From the IMG/VR virus record IMGVR_UViG_3300008740_000001, positions 128,001 through 192,000 of that record: a DNA stretch of 64,000 bases; one strand, 5' to 3'. This DNA comes from a virus. Taxonomy: Duplodnaviria; Caudoviricetes. The stretch's first letter is position 1. Every line of letters starts with the position of its first letter. Positions 13,736 to 63,428 of this stretch are shown here, in pieces. The notes under the pieces are model-generated. The model had not been told where the DNA came from. It did no database searches and saw only the letters and a program-made list of their open reading frames with translations. A program made the position numbers and the translations under genes.

Positions 13736-14016
13736 AAGCGTATACGGGAACTTTTACCAAGGTGGATGGTAGCAAACGAACAATGAATTTTGTTCGCTTG
13801 ACAGACTTGCCAGACAGCTTCCTCGCCGCGCAAATTAAGGGGCGAAATCTCTCAGAAACACGAATTCGAGCCAAGGCTAGGATGGTTGCTGAGGGGAAGG
13901 AGACTGTATGGGATCTAGAGAAGAACACGTTTCGTATTTTTAACTGGAAAACGACCACCGGTGAGGTTACAGAAATCGAGATCGAAAATAAAAACTTTTT
14001 TGAAAATAATACTTGA
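13732..14016 (+). CDS. WYL_2/DUF2693-like SH3-fold protein
   Basis: FTKVDGSKRTM...VWDLEKNTFRIF pattern. Confidence 0.55.
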   Translation: MKAYTGTFTKVDGSKRTMNFVRLTDLPDSFLAAQIKGRNLSETRIRAKARMVAEGKETVWDLEKNTFRIFNWKTTTGEVTEIEIENKNFFENNT

Positions 14017-14041
14017 CTTTTATATAAAGCGGTGTTATATT
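14013..14041 (+). promoter_or_regulatory. Sigma70-type promoter for the SSB gene
   Basis: TTGACT-N17-TATATT with extended -10 TG. Confidence 0.8.
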
Positions 14042-14107
14042 TAATAACAGAGGATCGGAATATTTGCCGATTCTACTATAGCCAAGAGCAAAAAGGAGAA
14101 AAGACTA

Positions 14108-35060: not shown

Positions 35061-35335
35061 AAACAATAAAAAACAATATCGGAAGAGTAGTTTTACAAAA
35101 CAAGGACGGGGTAACCAGATATGGCGTAATTACATTTCAGAGAATGCGTGAAGATTGGATGTACTATACCGTTTACTGGATTAGCAGTGTACCGTCTGAT
35201 TCACCATGGATCTCACAAATTGAGTGGCGATGCGATAAGGTCAAGATCATTGATGAGAAAACTCATCTAGCTGATCTACAGAGTGCCATCAACTTTCGTA
35301 ATTCGCGCAAATTCAAGGAGGCGATGATGCCATGA
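35057..35335 (+). CDS. Hypothetical protein
   Basis: Beta-rich small ORF in the operon. Confidence 0.5.
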   Translation: MKTIKNNIGRVVLQNKDGVTRYGVITFQRMREDWMYYTVYWISSVPSDSPWISQIEWRCDKVKIIDEKTHLADLQSAINFRNSRKFKEAMMP

Positions 35336-35592
35336 AGAAACGACAAAATGCGGCGCCCTGCGGTGCGTGGATGAAGCTGATAGAGTGTGATAAGATATGC
35401 CACAAGGAAGACTGCCGATTATGGCAGAATTATCCAGAAGACAGAAACTGCACTAATGTGACGGTTTACGAGCACGGACCATTAACTTTGGCAGAAACAG
35501 CAAAAAGGGTTGGGTTGTCACTATCTAGAATTAAACAGATTGAACAAAAGGCCTTGGAGAAGTTGAAGAAAAATAAGAATTTCGATTTTTAG
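35332..35592 (+). CDS. Stand-alone sigma-70 region 4 HTH protein with Cys-rich N-terminus
   Basis: PLTLAETAKRVGLSLSRIKQIEQKALEKL aligns with sigma70 region 4.2 ([28 protein letters not shown]). Confidence 0.8.
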   Translation: MKKRQNAAPCGAWMKLIECDKICHKEDCRLWQNYPEDRNCTNVTVYEHGPLTLAETAKRVGLSLSRIKQIEQKALEKLKKNKNFDF

Positions 35593-56757: not shown

Positions 56758-56975
56758 GTCAGAGCCAGCACTACTATAATCCGCAAGTGGGCGATTTGGT
56801 GCGAATCATCGAGGGTACACACGATCCGAGCATGCCCGAAGATCGTATTGGTCTGATCGTGGAGATTCTGCAACAGGAACCGGGAGACGCCCCGCGCAGT
56901 CACGATACTTTTATGGTCAAGTTTGGCACCCGTACCTTGAAGTTCCACAAGATGTGGCTTGAAAAAGTCTCTTGA
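56754..56975 (+). CDS. Small SH3-like protein
   Basis: PQVGDLVRI...IGLIV...LEKVS. Confidence 0.55.
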   Translation: MSQSQHYYNPQVGDLVRIIEGTHDPSMPEDRIGLIVEILQQEPGDAPRSHDTFMVKFGTRTLKFHKMWLEKVS

Positions 56976-57026
56976 CATCTTTTTGACAAAAAACCCCTTG
57001 CACCTCGCGCTAGCCTGTGCTATATT
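56972..57026 (+). promoter_or_regulatory. Triple -35 promoter
   Basis: TTGACA(56972), TTGACA(56983), TTGCAC(56998)-N17-TATATT. Confidence 0.8.
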
Positions 57027-57051
57027 ATATACATGATTTACGGAGAGTGTC

Positions 57052-57384
57052 ATGTCTGATTTTTATGTGAGCCGAATCGACGTTCGGGCTGGTGATCCTA
57101 CTGCTGGCGAGCCCGCTGTTGTTGCAGAGGAGGTCGTCCTGACCCTCAAAGCGCCATATCATGCTGCGGAGCGTAGTTACCAAAAGTTCCGCGCTTTGGG
57201 CATTGAGAACATTGGGCTGTACGAGTATTCTTTGAACAAAAAGTCTTACGCGGCTAGCCTCAAAGCGCAGAAGCGCAGGAAGTTCAAGAAGATCACGCTG
57301 GCTGACGTGGCAAAGGATTTGCAAGAGTTTATGGAGGAAGGCAAGCCCGATGCCGATCAAGAAACACACACTGAAAAGGGGTGA
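57052..57384 (+). CDS. Hypothetical protein
   Basis: GGAG SD, first ORF after the promoter. Confidence 0.55.
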   Translation: MSDFYVSRIDVRAGDPTAGEPAVVAEEVVLTLKAPYHAAERSYQKFRALGIENIGLYEYSLNKKSYAASLKAQKRRKFKKITLADVAKDLQEFMEEGKPDADQETHTEKG

Positions 57385-57574
57385 TCTTGTTCGGCTTCGC
57401 ACAGGCTGGCCCGAACATTGGCGTTATGGAATCGTGTTGCGAGTGAACAACCACAACCCTGAATGGCCACACTGTGATATACACTTTTTTCAAACACCAA
57501 CATCAGAATCAAAACAATCTAACATCAATCAATATCTAACTGGACTGGAGAAGATAAATGAGCAACACATTTGA
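57350..57574 (+). CDS. Small SH3-like protein
   Basis: LKRGDLVRL...GIV...LEKINE. Confidence 0.55.
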   Translation: MPIKKHTLKRGDLVRLRTGWPEHWRYGIVLRVNNHNPEWPHCDIHFFQTPTSESKQSNINQYLTGLEKINEQHI

Positions 57575-57788
57575 AATCGGTGAGGCTGTCGTGGTCGATA
57601 CCCGCAACTATTTGCAACACACAGAAGGCATCGTGATTGACGCATCATCGTCGGTCGATGGGTGCAGCGAGGATATGTATACGGTCGAGGTCGAAAACCA
57701 CGGTACGCATTTCTTCTATGGGTCTGATCTCCGAGCGGCAGCACCGGATGAACCTGAAGAAGAACCGGAGTGGAGGATTGCACTGTGA
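57558..57788 (+). CDS. Small SH3-like protein
   Basis: FEIGEAVVV...GIVI...YTV...DL. Confidence 0.55.
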   Translation: MSNTFEIGEAVVVDTRNYLQHTEGIVIDASSSVDGCSEDMYTVEVENHGTHFFYGSDLRAAAPDEPEEEPEWRIAL

Positions 57789-58042
57789 AGTTGTCAAGCA
57801 AACAGATGCGCTCGCTCCACCAGCTTGTAAAGCACGAGGTGGAAACAATGGGCGCAGCGTGGAACATTGACGAGGAGGAGTACCAGCAGGACATTCGGGA
57901 AGTGTTGGGAGTGATCGAGGCTACGCAATCGCAAAGTAAACTTGTAGCTCAGGCTGCTGAGACAAGACGAGCCAGAGTTAGTGCAACGTCTGCACCCGAG
58001 CAGGTGTGGCCCAAACCAATAAATGATCCCGCCGACTGGTAG
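57770..58042 (+). CDS. Hypothetical protein
   Basis: Overlapping ORF; start uncertain. Confidence 0.45.
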   Translation: MEDCTVKLSSKQMRSLHQLVKHEVETMGAAWNIDEEEYQQDIREVLGVIEATQSQSKLVAQAAETRRARVSATSAPEQVWPKPINDPADW

Positions 58043-58055
58043 GAGGCAAAAGAAT

Positions 58056-58364
58056 ATGCCAATGTGGAAACTAAACGAGAAGGTTGTTTGTCGTGATGGG
58101 TTTGAAGCCAGCATCCAAGCAAATGAAGGTGCATACTGTACGCCAAGAGTCACAGATGCAGATAACTATACAGCAGTCGAGATCGGCTTTCCAAGCCAGC
58201 GAGAAGAACTGATTATAGAATGGGCCGAAGATCCTCACCGCCCGACCGAGACTGTGTATGGCTGGGTTCCTGTCGATAGGGCCTCGCTTATGATCGCCAA
58301 ACATGGAGGCATCGTATCTGGTGAGGTTCCACCCGGTGTCATTCGACTGGAGGCCAAAAAGTAA
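58056..58364 (+). CDS. Conserved phage hypothetical protein
   Basis: C.DGF..SIQA....YC.PR...VEIGFPS...YGWVP; AGGAGG SD. Confidence 0.6.
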   Translation: MPMWKLNEKVVCRDGFEASIQANEGAYCTPRVTDADNYTAVEIGFPSQREELIIEWAEDPHRPTETVYGWVPVDRASLMIAKHGGIVSGEVPPGVIRLEAKK

Positions 58365-58400
58365 ACTTTGGCATTTCTCAAAGTTGTGAGATTAGATTAT

Positions 58401-58485
58401 GGCGCGGTGGTGGAATCGGTATACACAGCAGACTTAAAATCTGCCGCTTTTTAGCTTGCGGGTTCGAGTCCCGCCCGCGCTACCA
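58401..58485 (+). tRNA. tRNA-Leu(TAA)
   Basis: Acceptor GGCGCGG/CCGCGCT, anticodon arm GCAGA-CTTAAAA-TCTGC, long variable arm, T arm GCGGG-TTCGAGT-CCCGC, encoded CCA. Confidence 0.95.
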
Positions 58486-58499
58486 TTTTTCGCTGCCCT

Positions 58500-58595
58500 G
58501 TTCAGCGGCGGGACTTGCGACCCGCCTTGAAGTGCAGACCGTCACTAGGAGCAGAGGCGAAGTCTACGGGCTTCGACCTAACCGCTGCTGCCACG
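58500..58595 (+). ncRNA. Candidate structured ncRNA downstream of tRNA-Leu
   Basis: Closing CAGCGG/CCGCTG, internal hairpins CGGG..CCCG, AGTG..CACT, and GAAGTC-TACG-GGCTTC (C-UACG-G tetraloop). Confidence 0.5.
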
Positions 58596-58660
58596 AATCG
58601 GTGCTGGGGGTTTCTTTTTATTCGCTTCTAGTTATTATAGTATAGCTTGGAGGCTTTATC

Positions 58661-58843
58661 ATGATTATCATTCCACTTGACAAACTTGAAAAACTACGAA
58701 TCGAACAAGGCAAGGAGAGGCCAACCGACCGGCCCGCGCTGCAGTTGCCCGTGCCGGAGCATATGCCAGAAGCAATACACAGCGGGTCGGTTGAGCCGAC
58801 CGAGGACGAAACCGGTGCTGCAATCATAGATTTCACCCTTTGA
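58661..58843 (+). CDS. Hypothetical protein
   Basis: GGAGG SD; stop codon lies inside the first TTGACA box. Confidence 0.55.
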   Translation: MIIIPLDKLEKLRIEQGKERPTDRPALQLPVPEHMPEAIHSGSVEPTEDETGAAIIDFTL

Positions 58844-58894
58844 CATTCTCTTGACAACTTGGCTATTGACGCCACACCTCTCGCATGTTATATT
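58840..58894 (+). promoter_or_regulatory. Triple -35 promoter
   Basis: TTGACA(58840), TTGACA(58851), TTGACG(58866)-N17-TATATT. Confidence 0.82.
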
Positions 58895-58900
58895 ATATAC

Positions 58901-59071
58901 ATGAAACGAAGAAAGACAAAGGCACCGAAGTCGCGCAACTGGCTTGCGGTACATGCACGAATGGACTTGGCCACTGGTGGCGAGCGCAAAGGCGCTGGAC
59001 CGCACGGAGGCCGGAAGCAGCGTTATAGCCGCAAGGTAAAGCACAAGGGGCGTACTAATGAAAGTCGGTGA
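58901..59071 (+). CDS. Small basic protein, ArfA-like C-terminus
   Basis: RN.LA...KGAG...YSRKVKHKG; ends NESR* in the cassette junction. Confidence 0.5.
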   Translation: MKRRKTKAPKSRNWLAVHARMDLATGGERKGAGPHGGRKQRYSRKVKHKGRTNESR

Positions 59072-59219
59072 TCTGATCATGTCGAAAGACGGATACCATA
59101 CTGCGCTAGTGGTGAGTATTGTCGGAGCCGCTGCTTTCAACCGCATCAAAGTGCTGGTTGTTGGCAGCGACACGCCCGAAATGTGCGATCCGAGAATGTG
59201 GGAGGTTATAAGTGGATAG
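59058..59219 (+). CDS. SH3-like cassette protein (not in the ORF track)
   Basis: MKVGDLIMSKDG...WEVISG*, 53 aa, translated by hand. Confidence 0.65.
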   Translation: MKVGDLIMSKDGYHTALVVSIVGAAAFNRIKVLVVGSDTPEMCDPRMWEVISG

Positions 59220-59340
59220 CCTGCCTCAAACTCCCTTGGTGGCTTTTCTTTACATCTTTGCCTTCATAGGTCTTGGCATATTGATTAGTCAGGCCAGTCA
59301 TATTTTATACGACATTTGGGAAGATTGGAGGAAGAAGTGA
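59212..59340 (+). CDS. Small single-TM protein (42 aa)
   Basis: GGAGG SD, GTG start; LVAFLYIFAFIGLGILI. Confidence 0.5.
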   Translation: MDSLPQTPLVAFLYIFAFIGLGILISQASHILYDIWEDWRKK

Positions 59341-59420
59341 GAAGTATATTGGTAACTATTGGAATCGTGGTAACGATTTTCGTGCTTTCGTTTGCTATTA
59401 CATTGGCGCTAACAGCATGA
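59337..59420 (+). CDS. Small hydrophobic peptide (27 aa)
   Basis: GGAGG SD, GTGA and ATGA couplings at both ends; MRSILVTIGIVVTIFVLSFAITLALTA. Confidence 0.45.
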   Translation: MRSILVTIGIVVTIFVLSFAITLALTA

Positions 59421-59617
59421 AAGTCGGTGATTTGGTGCGCCCAACAGACAGAAACCTTCTATCGGGAAGCCGACGAGTTGGCATTGTTGTGCATGTGGAT
59501 ACCGGATGGGATAACAAACAAGTAAGAGTAAAGTGGGACATCCCCTCGTGGATGGACGATGAGGGTTTGGCGTCTGAATCTCCCGAGAACCTAGAGGTGA
59601 TCAGTGAAAGTCGGTGA
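59417..59617 (+). CDS. SH3-like cassette protein
   Basis: MKVGDLV...LEVISESR*. Confidence 0.7.
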   Translation: MKVGDLVRPTDRNLLSGSRRVGIVVHVDTGWDNKQVRVKWDIPSWMDDEGLASESPENLEVISESR

Positions 59618-59765
59618 CTTGGTTCGACATTGGTTGACAGAACAACTCGGTATTATCCTCGATGTTGGGTTTCACAATATCAGGGTTCAGTGGCTAGATG
59701 AGATCGTCTTTGGTGTTGAAGAACTTGATCCTCGCAACGTGGAGGTGGTCAGTGAAGCCCGGTGA
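59604..59765 (+). CDS. SH3-like cassette protein (not in the ORF track)
   Basis: MKVGDLVRHW...VEVVSEAR*, 53 aa, translated by hand. Confidence 0.65.
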   Translation: MKVGDLVRHWLTEQLGIILDVGFHNIRVQWLDEIVFGVEELDPRNVEVVSEAR

Positions 59766-59940
59766 TCTGGTAAGGCATTCCGAGCCTGTGGACCGGGCTG
59801 AGTTTGATGCTGTTGGTGTTGTTGTTGAGATTCAAGAAGATTGGATGAAGAACTGGTCAAAAGTAAAAGTAATGTGGACCGGCCTTCAGGTTCCAGTATG
59901 GGAACCAATCCGCTGCGTCAAACTCTTTACATCCTCTTGA
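59752..59940 (+). CDS. SH3-like cassette protein
   Basis: MKPGDLVRH...VGVVV...VKVMW; GGAGG SD. Confidence 0.65.
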   Translation: MKPGDLVRHSEPVDRAEFDAVGVVVEIQEDWMKNWSKVKVMWTGLQVPVWEPIRCVKLFTSS

Positions 59941-59980
59941 CAAGATTCTTGTTGACAGCCACAAACCCTTGTGCTATAAT
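59926..59980 (+). promoter_or_regulatory. Triple -35 promoter
   Basis: TTTACA(59926), TTGACA(59937), TTGACA(59952)-N17-TATAAT. Confidence 0.8.
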
Positions 59981-60005
59981 ACATAGGTAAATCGGAGAAC
60001 ACACC

Positions 60006-60344
60006 ATGAATATCGAACTAACCGAAGATGAGATTATCATGATCCTTGACTGCATTGGAGCACGGATTGAGGATCTTCAAGAAACCTTGGCATGGACACC
60101 TGATTGCGGCGAATCTGCCGATCAGCTATCCGCATTGGCCGATCTGGATATGGACTTGCGCGAGCAGTCCAACCGGCGGGACGATGGCTGGAATGACGAA
60201 GTGACTGAAACCTTTACGACGAACCTAGTCCAGTCTGCCATCGACGACTGGCAATCAAAAGTAACCTCTAGCTCGAAGGCCGCCAGCAGGCGGCAGGCCC
60301 GGTGGCTAGGACTGAACCGAACAACCAACAAAGGGAATGAATAG
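60006..60344 (+). CDS. Hypothetical helical protein
   Basis: GGAG SD, first ORF after the promoter. Confidence 0.55.
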   Translation: MNIELTEDEIIMILDCIGARIEDLQETLAWTPDCGESADQLSALADLDMDLREQSNRRDDGWNDEVTETFTTNLVQSAIDDWQSKVTSSSKAASRRQARWLGLNRTTNKGNE

Positions 60345-60540
60345 CATGGCGATTTGCATCGAATGTGAAGAAGAATACAACGACAAGCGGAAAGCCTTGG
60401 GCTACCGCACTTGCTTGGACTGTGGAGGTCGAGCAGCAAACAGGACCATCCGGGCCCGAAACGCTGCCAGCTTGCGGGCTATGACCCCGAACCACTACGA
60501 AGGCAGCGTGGAGGATATGTTTGACAAGCGCCCCTCTTGA
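60337..60540 (+). CDS. C4 zinc-finger protein (TraR/DksA-like finger)
   Basis: CIEC-x15-CLDC with internal R...G. Confidence 0.5.
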   Translation: MNSMAICIECEEEYNDKRKALGYRTCLDCGGRAANRTIRARNAASLRAMTPNHYEGSVEDMFDKRPS

Positions 60541-60544
60541 AGCC

Positions 60545-60599
60545 TTGACATTTACTTGACAAGAAATGCCTTGCCATCTAGTGCAGGGCATGATATATT
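60545..60599 (+). promoter_or_regulatory. Triple -35 promoter
   Basis: TTGACA(60545), TTGACA(60556), TTGCCA(60571)-N17-TATATT. Confidence 0.82.
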
Positions 60600-60605
60600 A
60601 TATAC

Positions 60606-60890
60606 ATGAGCCAAAGGAGAAATCTCATGATGCCTGACTACGATCCAGATTTTCAAGTCTACACCGATATGGAGCAGTGTAACCGCTTTGAAGCCTCGTA
60701 CTTTGATCACGAGGCCGAGTTGGTTGTTGCAGCATCTACCCTTCTGGAGTCGAAAGGACCGGGCGGCTATGATGCTTCGCATACCGAGTTTTTGTCACAG
60801 TTTGGTTCAGGCACACTGGTGCTTCGTCGCACTAGCGAACAGTGCCCCGGCTGGTGGCGTGTTCACAACTTTATCCCGACGAGGTGGTAA
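60606..60890 (+). CDS. Hypothetical protein
   Basis: First ORF after the promoter; alternative start after AAGGAG. Confidence 0.5.
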   Translation: MSQRRNLMMPDYDPDFQVYTDMEQCNRFEASYFDHEAELVVAASTLLESKGPGGYDASHTEFLSQFGSGTLVLRRTSEQCPGWWRVHNFIPTRW

Positions 60891-61196
60891 ATGGAACTTT
60901 GGGTCATGACAGGTACATATAACGGCGAACATTTCGCCACAACCCACTTGACCGAAGTCGGAGCATTGAAATCAATGATCTTCGACGTACTCCAGTTTCT
61001 TGGCATCGAGGAAGAAGAACATGCGAGAGCAGATCCCGACGCAGCAGAAAAGCCAGACTTGGAGTGGAGCCCGCAAGTGATTGGAGAAATGGAAGTTGAT
61101 GAACTGCGGTCCCTAATGCGTAAGTACCACCAATACACTTGGGACAACTGCGAAGGGTACTCCATAGAAATATGCCGGTGCCAACTGGAAGCATGA
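60891..61196 (+). CDS. Hypothetical protein
   Basis: GAGGTG SD, coupled ORF. Confidence 0.55.
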   Translation: MELWVMTGTYNGEHFATTHLTEVGALKSMIFDVLQFLGIEEEEHARADPDAAEKPDLEWSPQVIGEMEVDELRSLMRKYHQYTWDNCEGYSIEICRCQLEA

Positions 61197-61423
61197 TTAG
61201 TAAACTTAGCCGACAACCACGGCGCAGCTTTGCGCCCCGACGCAGCAAGGCCCCGAGAATGGGGGATGTGGTGATCCATAAAGTTGATAAGTCTCTCGGT
61301 GTGGGTCTGGTTATGGAATGCTGGGGGATCGATTGCTTGGTTCAATGGGCCAAAACAATCGTGGAGCCAGATCCATGCTGGCATCGCCGCGTCAAGCTAG
61401 AGGTGATTAGTGAAAGTCGGTGA
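61193..61423 (+). CDS. SH3-like cassette protein
   Basis: RMGDVV...GLV...VQW...LEVISESR*. Confidence 0.6.
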   Translation: MISKLSRQPRRSFAPRRSKAPRMGDVVIHKVDKSLGVGLVMECWGIDCLVQWAKTIVEPDPCWHRRVKLEVISESR

Positions 61424-61607
61424 TTTGGTGATTATGCCGGGGTCGGGTATTGTTCCTGAAAGGCCAGCAATCGGCATTATAGTAACGCCCCGTGTCAACA
61501 GGGGAAAGACCCGCAGGACTGCCCGAATCGGTGTCATGTGGTCGGATGGCGATGGCGTGGATATGGAACCTTGTCACTGGCTGGAGGTGATTAGTGAAAG
61601 TCGGTGA
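61410..61607 (+). CDS. SH3-like cassette protein
   Basis: MKVGDLV...LEVISESR*. Confidence 0.7.
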   Translation: MKVGDLVIMPGSGIVPERPAIGIIVTPRVNRGKTRRTARIGVMWSDGDGVDMEPCHWLEVISESR

Positions 61608-61878
61608 TTTAGTGGTTCAAGGCAATCGAGTCTTGATGATAAAGGGCAGTAAGCGCAAGTCGAAAATGATTGGTGTTGTTGTAGCGATCCGTGACATGCC
61701 GCCCGCCCGACCGGAAGAAACTGAAGTGTTGAGACAAATGATGGCTATGCTAGGGCGTCAGGTTGATGTGCTTTGGCCTAATGGCCATGTGTCTAAAAAC
61801 TTTGCCGAGAACGGTTTAGAGGTTGTAACGTCCAAAGAAGAATGGCTGGAGGCTGTTAGTGACGTACAAGAAGGGTGA
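61594..61878 (+). CDS. SH3-like cassette protein
   Basis: MKVGDLV...GVVV...VLW...LEVV...EAVSD. Confidence 0.7.
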   Translation: MKVGDLVVQGNRVLMIKGSKRKSKMIGVVVAIRDMPPARPEETEVLRQMMAMLGRQVDVLWPNGHVSKNFAENGLEVVTSKEEWLEAVSDVQEG

Positions 61879-62065
61879 TTTGGTCGAAGTTAGGCGTATT
61901 CTGGGTGTGGGCGATGGGTTTCATCCACGGCGACGGGGCATAGTTCTGCAAACGACAGCGGCGATTTCTGACAACGATCCCAAAGGTGTTCTGGTGATGA
62001 TCAACGACGGAGTTGAGGCTAGCGAGTGGTATGCTTGGCAACTTGAAATGATTAGTGAAAAGTAA
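61859..62065 (+). CDS. SH3-like cassette protein
   Basis: MTYKKGDLV...GIV...LEMISEK*. Confidence 0.65.
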   Translation: MTYKKGDLVEVRRILGVGDGFHPRRRGIVLQTTAAISDNDPKGVLVMINDGVEASEWYAWQLEMISEK

Positions 62066-62119
62066 ACTTTGACATCTGAGTTTCTCCGCCGAGACTACTT
62101 ACAAGCGACGAGGTGAAAA

Positions 62120-62296
62120 ATGAAAGAAGTTGATGTAAAGCTGAACACCGGGCAGATTGAGATGATCGAAGAAGCCTTGCAGCTATTGCGAGTAACTTAT
62201 GACGGCAGCACTATCATTGGCAAGATCCGCCTGCGCGATGTGAAGTCGCTAGCAAGGAAGATGCACGAGGCGAAAGAGGACGCAGAAACGCCTTGA
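62120..62296 (+). CDS. Hypothetical protein (58 aa, not in the ORF track)
   Basis: GAGGTG SD; MKEVDVKLNTGQIEMIEEAL...; stop codon inside a TTGACA box. Confidence 0.55.
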   Translation: MKEVDVKLNTGQIEMIEEALQLLRVTYDGSTIIGKIRLRDVKSLARKMHEAKEDAETP

Positions 62297-62347
62297 CACA
62301 CTCTTGACAACTGAACTCTTGACAGGCTAGCCCGCAGATGGTATATT
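62293..62347 (+). promoter_or_regulatory. Triple -35 promoter
   Basis: TTGACA(62293), TTGACA(62304), TTGACA(62319)-N17-TATATT. Confidence 0.85.
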
Positions 62348-62353
62348 ATAGGC

Positions 62354-62584
62354 ATGATGATTGGTGATCTAGTGCTGGTTCATTGGGGCAACAGCGACTA
62401 TTCCGGCGCAGAGGGTGTCGATTGGGGTCGTTCCCCCGGCATCGTCATTGGCGAGGTCCGGTACTGGAATGAGGACGCCCGAGCCAGCAACTCGCCCGTG
62501 TGTGGCGATGTTGATCTATGGTTTCGTAACGAAAGAATCTCATACAATATCGGACGATGCGAGGTGATCAATGAAAGTGCCTAG
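62354..62584 (+). CDS. SH3-like cassette protein
   Basis: MMIGDLV...GIVI...EVINESA*. Confidence 0.7.
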   Translation: MMIGDLVLVHWGNSDYSGAEGVDWGRSPGIVIGEVRYWNEDARASNSPVCGDVDLWFRNERISYNIGRCEVINESA

Positions 62585-62753
62585 CCTAAAGATTGGTGAT
62601 CTGGTTGTTCGCACCTATGGAGAAGGACAAAGGCCGATGGCGCTCGTCGTTGGCCGGTTCAATGCGTTGATCGTAAAAGTAAAGTGGCTGGGCTCTGACA
62701 TGATCGAAGATGTGAACAGTCAATATCTGGAGGTAATCAATGAAAGTCGGTGA
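62571..62753 (+). CDS. SH3-like cassette protein
   Basis: MKVPSLKIGDLV...LEVINESR*. Confidence 0.7.
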   Translation: MKVPSLKIGDLVVRTYGEGQRPMALVVGRFNALIVKVKWLGSDMIEDVNSQYLEVINESR

Positions 62754-62937
62754 CTTGATAACTCTCACATATGAGGGTGAACCACTTGATGATCGGGCTG
62801 TGGGCATTGTTACCTGTATTGATCCCGAAGAACTTGGCGACGACGAAGAAGTTGAAGTATGGTGGATCGGTCATTTCACCGGCCACAGCAATCACTCAAC
62901 ATGGAATCTGGAGGTTATTAGTGATGCAAGTAGGTGA
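62740..62937 (+). CDS. SH3-like cassette protein
   Basis: MKVGDLI...LEVISDASR*. Confidence 0.7.
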   Translation: MKVGDLITLTYEGEPLDDRAVGIVTCIDPEELGDDEEVEVWWIGHFTGHSNHSTWNLEVISDASR

Positions 62938-63154
62938 CATAGTTCAGGGCGAAGCATGCAGCAACTTGGATGCTGTTGGCATCATTATATCGAAATCAAC
63001 ATCACCACCGTGGGCTGGAGGTCCAGACCGAATCGTGGTGTGCATAACAAAGAGCGCCGCGAACAATCATACAGACAAGTTTCAAGCAGGTAGTCACGCA
63101 TCAACAAAGGTCAGTTATAATCTTTGGAAGGTCATTAGTCATGCAAGTCGGTGA
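62924..63154 (+). CDS. SH3-like cassette protein
   Basis: MQVGDIV...KVISHASR*; probable true start is the ATG at 62924 after GGAGG. Confidence 0.68.
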   Translation: MQVGDIVQGEACSNLDAVGIIISKSTSPPWAGGPDRIVVCITKSAANNHTDKFQAGSHASTKVSYNLWKVISHASR

Positions 63155-63353
63155 TTTGGTGAGAAACTACATGACGGAACAACTGGGTACTGTTGTTGCT
63201 GAGTCGTGTCGCGTTACTGGTGGTAACGATACTGACGAGCCTCATAGTTTTCAAGTGCTGTGGACTACTACGGGCGATTTTGGAGGCGAAGTTGGGTCTA
63301 AAGAATGGACAGGCCCGACGTTTGTGGAGATATTGGATGATGATCGGTCTTGA
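63141..63353 (+). CDS. SH3-like cassette protein
   Basis: MQVGDLV...VEILDDDRS*. Confidence 0.68.
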   Translation: MQVGDLVRNYMTEQLGTVVAESCRVTGGNDTDEPHSFQVLWTTTGDFGGEVGSKEWTGPTFVEILDDDRS

Positions 63354-63404
63354 CATTTACTTGACAAAGAACCTCTTGACAGCGACCGAGGCATATGGTA
63401 TATT
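63350..63404 (+). promoter_or_regulatory. Triple -35 promoter
   Basis: TTGACA(63350), TTGACA(63361), TTGACA(63376)-N17-TATATT. Confidence 0.85.
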
Positions 63405-63428
63405 ATAGGCACAATCAAGGAGATCCCT

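Follow-up and report, generated by a model that had tools for sequence, protein, structure and literature searches.

A strongly conserved tandem TTGACA element upstream of predicted early promoters in a clade of T4-type phages

Early promoters of T4-type phages have been described in two forms that are relevant here. One is the PeSL, composed of a stem-loop, an A/T-rich region, -35 and -10 hexamers, a Shine-Dalgarno (SD) sequence and an ATG, and associated with hyperplastic regions (Arbiol et al. 2010, PMC2839356; Comeau et al. 2014, PMC4122927); the other is the early 'uber' promoter of T4 itself, which combines an UP element, a -35, a TGn and a -10 (Hinton 2010, PMC2988021). In addition, the PhoP box provides an example of a regulator site with the layout hexamer-N5-hexamer (PMC3335776). 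Here we report on a 64,000-nucleotide stretch of viral DNA (hereafter, the window), corresponding to positions 128,001 to 192,000 of the 203,859-bp virus record IMGVR_UViG_3300008740_000001 (genome G000), in which a series of promoters carry two further -35-like hexamers (boxes 1 and 2) at fixed offsets upstream of the hexamer that serves as their own -35 (box 3). What appears to be new, judging from the sequence, is the strongly selected upstream double box on an otherwise known type of phage early sigma-70 promoter cassette, and we consider the chances about evenly balanced that this double box is the site of a dedicated tandem-binding factor coupled to RNA polymerase.

Of the systems described so far, the PeSL comes closest. 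The modules resemble PeSLs in that conserved sigma-70-type early promoters are combined with an SD sequence and a start codon in many co-oriented copies, and in that these copies sit at cassette boundaries within a hyperplastic region of small ORFan genes. However, they lack the upstream stem-loop terminator, have two invariant TTGACA boxes with an 11-bp period instead of the A/T-rich region, and are carried by phages of a deep, marine 'Far-T4' clade whose polymerase is of the DnaE type. The likeness to the T4 uber promoters lies in the strong, host-polymerase type of promoter (-35, TGn and -10) with extra conserved information upstream and, presumably, in use immediately after infection; yet the upstream information in T4 consists of A-tract UP elements read by the C-terminal domain of the polymerase alpha subunit (alpha-CTD), as opposed to two G/C-containing hexamers identical to the -35 consensus. 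The P41 region of phage Felix O1 (PMC3185647) also has a host-type phage promoter in which a perfect TTGACA(A) is repeated beside the -35, but there the boxes are 12 bp apart (N6) with one of them inside the spacer, whereas the modules have two boxes upstream of a third, at 11 + 15 bp. Full-text searches of the literature brought up no paper in which phage early promoters with tandem -35 boxes upstream are described, nor one on the Felix O1 layout.

A search of the window for TTGACA-N5-TTGACA, allowing at most one mismatch, returned six matches, all on the + strand, compared to an average of 0.49 in 100 shuffled windows, none of which reached six. These are the same six modules that an earlier, sequence-only reading of the window had pointed out (Table 1), and direct reading agrees with that description: box 1 of the third module is TTTACA, a third box lies at +26 in 6/6 (TTGCAC, TTGACG, TTGACA, TTGCCA, TTGACA and TTGACA, in order of position), and 17 nt separate it from a TATATT or TATAAT -10 in every module, with a TGn ahead of the -10 in all six. 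Six was nonetheless an under-count, since the layout occurs 13 times in the full genome, always on the + strand, between genome positions 184972 and 197928, with copies 0.5-1.9 kb apart within a 13-kb block of small genes. TTGnnn-N17-TATAWT and TG at -15/-14 are present in 13/13 modules; that is, the modules show the hexamer, the 17+/-1 bp spacer, the TATAAT-like -10 and the TGn of sigma-70 extended -10 promoters, as which they may be classified. The block (genome 184000-199500) has a G+C content of 51.4% vs. 44.6% for the remainder of the genome, which suggests a separately evolving or exchanged compartment; its promoter type and gene content are the grounds on which we refer to it as early. 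In half of the window modules (modules 2, 4 and 5) the predicted +1, 7 nt past the -10, is the first base of an ATG, and it falls on an ATG at genome 192315 as well, so several cassette-first genes would have leaderless mRNAs. The arrangement at module 2, where the ATG opens a very basic 56-amino acid (aa) protein, is kept in a relative (G001). The remaining three window modules have leaders of ~20 nt with AAGGAG or GGAG.

The major capsid protein of the phage that carries these modules is of the T4 type (Pfam Gp23, 199 bits), and its nearest cultured relatives are only those of Flavobacterium phage immuto, Microcystis phage Mel-JY01 and Rhodothermus phage RM378 (43-49% identity over partial length), with 45-54% over part of the protein as the most that any cultured relative reaches. 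The phage also encodes a DnaE-type polymerase, DnaB, a class II ribonucleotide reductase, GroEL, IMPDH/GuaC and ClpP, and thus belongs to a deep 'Far-T4' lineage of marine phages. The record has a G+C content of 45% and a 119-bp terminal repeat, which probably reflects circular assembly. Megablast against the phage collection gave no match and hence no close annotated relative. In IMG/VR, at least 598 stretches of viral contigs code for close relatives of the capsid protein, 61-70% identical for the best 80 of them, and the clade is therefore abundant. The element is conserved across this clade: modules were found in ten other complete or near-complete genomes of 172-203 kb (G001-G005, G012, G013 and G015-G017), with 4 to ~17 copies each, in one block and on one strand, even though ClpP of the five relatives compared is only 47-53% identical to that of the window. 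A scan of IMG/VR with TTGACA-N5-TTGACA-N9-TTGA gave at least 201 matches on at least 119 stretches, and 137 of the 201 matches listed have TAnnnT at exactly N17 (chance 1/64; p about 1e-195).

The strength of selection on each box was read from 60 modules of six genomes, collected with a -10 anchor plus any two of the three boxes (at most one mismatch), a rule that treats the boxes symmetrically. Perfect TTGACA was observed in 51/60 modules for box 1 and 52/60 for box 2 vs. 15/60 for box 3 (p about 1e-11). The ACA at positions 4-6 is invariant in 120/120 upstream boxes, with the rare variants confined to the TTG (TTTACA, CTGACA, TTAACA), whereas box 3 shows the classical sigma-70 decay (T59 T51 G52 A48 C45 A25 of 60; p = 2e-21) and variants such as TTGATC, TGGACA, TAGACA and TTGCNN stand beside intact boxes 1 and 2. 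In other words, the upstream element is under stronger conservation than the -35 itself. The conservation extends, within as well as between genomes, to the flanks (a C before each upstream box, a T after box 1 and an A after box 2) and to spacer 1, a G-free TTYWC, so the unit would best be described as two 8-mers, C-TTGACA-W, with an 11-bp period. The start-to-start distance of boxes 1 and 2 is 11 bp in 60/60 modules under this definition, and box 3 is followed by N17 in 54/60 and by N16 in 6/60. Independently, a -10-anchored histogram of all viral loci shows TTGAC peaks at -49, -38 and -23, plus a minor class at -48, -37 and -22; the shift affects all three peaks, and the three boxes therefore keep a rigid spacing to each other when their distance from the -10 changes. 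A row of three consensus -35 hexamers might also be taken for tandem promoters of the T7 A1-A3 type, each independent of the others, as the sequence-only reading had allowed. However, a TAnnnT 16-18 bp past the box is present for box 3 in 60/60 modules but for box 1 and box 2 in 1/60 each, and even the best -10 partners of the latter differ from TATAAT at 3-5 positions. Neither upstream box is thus a promoter in its own right, and the tandem-promoter explanation is hardly credible.

Spacers 2 and 3, as opposed to the boxes, are near-random (0.28-0.44 identity), which indicates that the boxes are kept by selection and not by recent copying. This observation bears on the possibility that the module is simply a recombination cassette analogous to PeSLs, kept for homologous shuffling between co-infecting phages, with boxes that have no regulatory role. 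Such an explanation would account for the promoter + SD + ATG units between blocks of small ORFan genes in a hyperplastic region, as described for PeSLs (PMC2839356; PMC4122927), for a spacer identity slightly higher within (0.42) than between genomes (0.37), and for the preferential ending of upstream open reading frames (ORFs) in box 1. As to the latter, the sequence-only reading placed the TGA of the upstream gene within one of the two upstream boxes in five of six units, which is the case: ORFs end at 56975, 58843, 59940 (box 2), 62296 and 63353, and the sixth, with its end at 60540, falls 5 nt short of box 1. The pattern is partly mechanical because TTGACA contains TGA, and offsets 1, 12 and 27 close two of the three frames. 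Across the six genomes, box 1 provides the stop of 27/42 ORFs that run into modules, where one third would be expected (p = 4e-5), and hence no gap is left between the genes and the module. What speaks against a recombination cassette is that random spacers next to invariant boxes, at ~50% protein identity, indicate base-specific purifying selection rather than homogenization of copies, that recombination needs identity but not specifically TTGACA at an 11-bp period, and that the defining stem-loop is absent. Indeed, the block contains 16 terminator-like sites vs. 13.7 expected, none of them systematically before modules, and this lack of enrichment in intrinsic terminators also means that the 13 promoters read through co-directionally. 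We therefore regard recombination alone as quite an improbable reason for the boxes.

The double box also distinguishes two promoter classes within the same genome. The promoters at 14013, 16449, 17381, 31627 and 41462 have a single -35 each, as the sequence-only reading had claimed, and the 25 nt upstream of these are 56-92% A+T. Thirteen other good promoters of the genome (class A) have the same core as the modules (cTTGACt-N14-TGTTATATTA) and no upstream boxes; their upstream 25 nt average 79% A+T with A-tracts and are UP-like, compared to 65% A+T with fixed G and C in the corresponding region of the modules, which is not the A/T-rich A-tract at -40 to -60 that characterizes an UP element. 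The early block of one relative (G003) has mostly promoters of the A/T-rich type and only four triple-box modules. Judging from this distribution, the A/T-rich element and the double box look interchangeable, and the double box, in the place of the UP element, may do a similar job.

The same distribution can be read in favor of an alternative, also raised by the sequence-only reading, in which the boxes are extra docking sites for sigma region 4. Under this hypothesis, region 4 of the host holoenzyme would transiently bind the upstream hexamers, so that a lone phage genome entering the cell would capture polymerase at a higher rate, with a subsequent shift of the polymerase to the productive register. 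The boxes and their flanks (C-TTGACA-T/A) agree with the extended -35 consensus, the boxes sit where other promoters have UP-like A-tracts (with G003 suggesting interchangeability), and no extra factor is required, consistent with none having been found. On the other hand, the profile of the boxes is the inverse of a sigma-4 reading, given that the true -35 of both the modules and class A varies at positions 4-6, where the upstream boxes are invariant. Further, a holoenzyme has only a single region 4 to offer, and a distance of 11-26 bp leaves no room upstream for a second polymerase. Binding in non-productive registers should hinder the productive one by competition instead of assisting it, and the invariant 11/15 geometry is unnecessary for simple capture. 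Hence, we view capture by sigma region 4 as possible but rather unlikely. Between the two proposals of the sequence-only reading, the ACA invariance favors a regulator site over extra docking, although the binder side of that proposal was not borne out.

In the model that we favor, each unit would be a composite early-promoter cassette for RNA polymerase carrying the host primary sigma factor. Its core would consist of box 3 as the -35, the 17-bp spacer, TGn and TATAWT, followed either by a leaderless ATG or by a 20-nt leader with an SD sequence, and a 19-20-bp element, C-TTGACA-T-TYW-C-TTGACA-A, would replace the A/T-rich UP-like region at about -62 to -45. A dedicated protein would bind this element as a head-to-tail pair and, from a fixed position beside the alpha-CTD and region 4 of sigma, would control how active this promoter class is, with activation or recruitment being likelier than repression. 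The outcome would be that the hypervariable block of small early genes is gated as a unit. We favor a dedicated protein over region 4 of the polymerase because the base profile is not sigma-like, the constraint is stronger than that on the -35, the element is an 11-bp direct repeat with rigid spacing, and it is specific to one promoter class. The sequences show the element itself, its geometry, its constraint, its conservation across the clade and its restriction to one promoter class, whereas a protein reader other than sigma region 4, the sign of the regulation and the early timing are what we infer.

Several points weigh against this model. No binder was found by domain searches of the six genomes (G000-G005) or among the protein families of the block, and none of the public RNA runs searched contained this DNA. 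Moreover, the core promoters are already near consensus in their -35, 17-bp spacing, TGn and -10, such that an activator seems superfluous, and this leaves room for repression and other roles. Finally, the boxes equal the extended -35 consensus of sigma-70 (tcTTGACat), and if the factor had nothing to do with sigma-70, this identity would be a strange accident. The earlier proposal of a dedicated regulator site thus stands as far as a selected cis element, a fixed geometry and a distinct promoter class are concerned, but not with respect to the binder. One stereotyped promoter design drives the early hypervariable block in an abundant clade of marine phages, and the identity of the reader could reveal a new phage route to the host RNA polymerase, a host signal that feeds into the early expression of phages in the ocean, or a mode of DNA reading by the polymerase that has so far gone unappreciated. 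The 75-bp module also represents a clean marker for the early region of the clade and a compact, testable part for synthetic biology.

A response regulator of the OmpR/PhoB family was among the readers that the sequence-only reading had considered. The pho-box core has the spacing TGTCA-N6-TGTCA. The reverse strand of the boxes reads TGTCAA-N5-TGTCAA, i.e., TGTCA-N6-TGTCA, and the element shares with OmpR/PhoB/PhoP sites two direct repeats with an 11-bp period, implying a head-to-tail dimer, as well as the TGTCA core with an invariant TGT; its place just upstream of the -35 is one known PhoP-box architecture. However, classical pho boxes are oriented with transcription and replace the -35, whereas the TGTCA of the modules is on the opposite strand, in a pair at about -62 to -46 that leaves the -35 downstream of it intact. 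The spacer is not A/T-rich but pyrimidine/purine-rich, none of the bacterial genomes examined has the element as a regulon motif, and no such regulator was recognized in the six phages (G000-G005). The analogy therefore holds for the repeat geometry and the TGTCA core, and fails for orientation and position, which are reversed. It is unlikely, in our view, that the element works as a -35-mimic operator for a small, free-standing protein with sigma region 4 or for an analogous, unrecognized phage factor, or that the block is tied to a host two-component signal (e.g., phosphate status). If a -35-mimic operator were the case, a clade of abundant marine phages would switch its whole hypervariable early block on or off together.

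A phage-encoded candidate for reading such an operator is the free-standing sigma-4 protein of the window (Table 1), which is genuine, as the sequence-only reading had it: it matches the Pfam Sigma70_r4 helix-turn-helix (HTH) domain with 42 bits against a cut-off of 24.1. This protein, or a functional analogue, might bind the boxes and, once the early phase is over, shut the promoter class down, or else turn it on. In favor of this, the HTH is bona fide and the protein is present in six of 11 module-bearing genomes (G000, G002, G004, G012, G013 and G016), in a syntenic position in G002 and G004. It is absent, however, from the other five (G001, G003, G005, G015 and G017, by tblastn and hidden Markov model searches), which have 4 to ~17 modules each, and for this reason we rejected it as an obligatory or general reader. 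Its nearest solved structure is a sigma-28-type factor with E = 0.01, and a repressor reading TTGACA should keep box 3 perfect, which box 3 is not. An operator for this protein or its analogue is therefore very doubtful.

Other candidate readers fared no better. OmpR/PhoB (Trans_reg_C) winged-helix and LuxR/GerE domains were not recognized in G000-G005, nor were AsiA or Alt-type ADP-ribosyltransferase domains, and phage-encoded readers of these four kinds were rejected on the basis of these empty searches. ModA or MotA-type factors were not detected either. The families conserved in the block are a MoxR-type AAA ATPase, a DUF2201 VWA/metallopeptidase protein, a CCHC zinc-knuckle protein and a 280-aa protein (locus L143:15755-16597, genome 195754-196596), and the last of these is the sole family that is block-encoded in 6/6 genomes. 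Its AlphaFold model (pLDDT 90) has helical repeats, a C-terminal Tudor/PWWP/SH3-like barrel and a basic tail, with no significant match in the PDB; we set the protein aside as a reader since the predicted fold gives no support for sequence-specific binding of double-stranded DNA.

The possibility that the promoter design is native to the host was rejected as well. A 19-base version of the pattern has eight matches in 596 Gb of bacterial genomes vs. ~4 by chance, and the only true modules among these eight are phage-derived. They come from a metagenome-assembled genome (MAG), 'candidate division WOR-3 bacterium bin77 chromosome' (CP070664.1), which has at least eight triple-box modules at six dispersed places adjoining N runs and ordinary cellular genes. 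The modules in this MAG accompany genes of a small paralogous family (MKVGDLV...EVISESR, below) and a gene for an AAA ATPase that shares 82% identity with its G002 counterpart, and they are most likely phage contigs that were binned or concatenated into the MAG, which is at best a weak lead to the host. A cyanophage host, and with it the idea of an RpaB/HLR1 or cyanobacterial pho-box site, was set aside, given that psbA is found in none of the six genomes and the period is 11 bp, not 10.

Table 1. Coordinates of the promoter modules and of other features mentioned in the text (window positions unless marked as genome or locus positions; SD, Shine-Dalgarno sequence)
Feature	Position	Strand	Promoter elements or description	Predicted start
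Module 1	56971..57034	+	Box 1 56972-56977; box 2 56983-56988; box 3 TTGCAC 56998-57003; -10 TATATT 57021-57026 with TGn	Predicted +1 near 57033; SD GGAG; ATG 57052
Module 2	58839..58902	+	Boxes 58840, 58851, 58866 (TTGACG); -10 58889-58894	Predicted +1 = ATG 58901; basic 56-aa ORF MKRRKTK...; candidate leaderless mRNA
Module 3	59925..59988	+	Boxes 59926 (TTTACA), 59937, 59952 (TTGACA); -10 TATAAT 59975-59980	SD; ATG 60006
Module 4	60544..60607	+	Boxes 60545, 60556, 60571 (TTGCCA); -10 60594-60599	Predicted +1 at ATG 60606; in-frame ATG 60627 preceded by AAGGAG
Module 5	62292..62355	+	Boxes 62293, 62304, 62319; -10 62342-62347	Predicted +1 = ATG 62354 (MMIGDLV...); candidate leaderless mRNA
Module 6	63349..63412	+	Boxes 63350, 63361, 63376; -10 63399-63404	SD AAGGAG; GTG 63429
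Seven modules past the window end	genome 192253, 193105, 194161, 194667, 195672, 196593, 197912	+		
Contrast-class promoter	13987..14045	+	TTGACT-N17-TGTTATATT; A/T-rich UP-like upstream	
Other single -35 promoters	16449, 17381, 25456, 31627, 39503, 41462			
Sigma-4 protein	35332..35592	+	86 aa; Cys-rich N-terminus; sigma-70 region 4	
CCHC zinc-knuckle protein	L143:14766-15632			
TTGACAAG arrays	L148:6950-7110; L153:895-975; L149 60-185	reverse (L149)	Between membrane-protein and secreted-protein genes	

In three Planctomycetia MAGs, an orthologous intergenic region has 6-13 direct repeats of TTGACAAG, mostly 11, 13 or 15 bp apart (Table 1). The arrays were rejected as a regulon because each genome has a single orthologous intergenic locus; some bacterial factor evidently reads arrays of TTGACAAG.

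Several features of the early block itself also deserve mention. The MoxR-type (AAA_5) ATPase gene is followed by the gene of the DUF2201 (VWA-like + putative metallopeptidase) protein at L143:16706-19302 (genome 196705-199301); the pair is 48-67% identical across five genomes, with a triple-box module ahead of each gene. Between 59058 and 63353, the window has many paralogous genes of 50-95 aa that start with MKVGDLV, end with EVISESR, are joined at overlapping stop/start junctions (GTGATTAGTGAAAGTCGGTGA) and match no Pfam family; homologues were found in all relatives and in the WOR-3 MAG islands. A 67-aa protein encoded at 60337-60540 has a CxxC-N15-CxxC zinc ribbon reminiscent of polymerase-binding proteins of the TraR/DksA type, with only a weak Pfam match (zf-POGZ, E = 0.011). 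Finally, at window 58401-58640 the early block contains a tRNA-Leu(UAA) gene, which is followed by ~130 nt of G+C-rich non-coding sequence that ends in the terminator-like GGGGGTTTCTTTTTATTC, and then by a short A/T-rich start region that leads into a 60-aa ORF at 58661.

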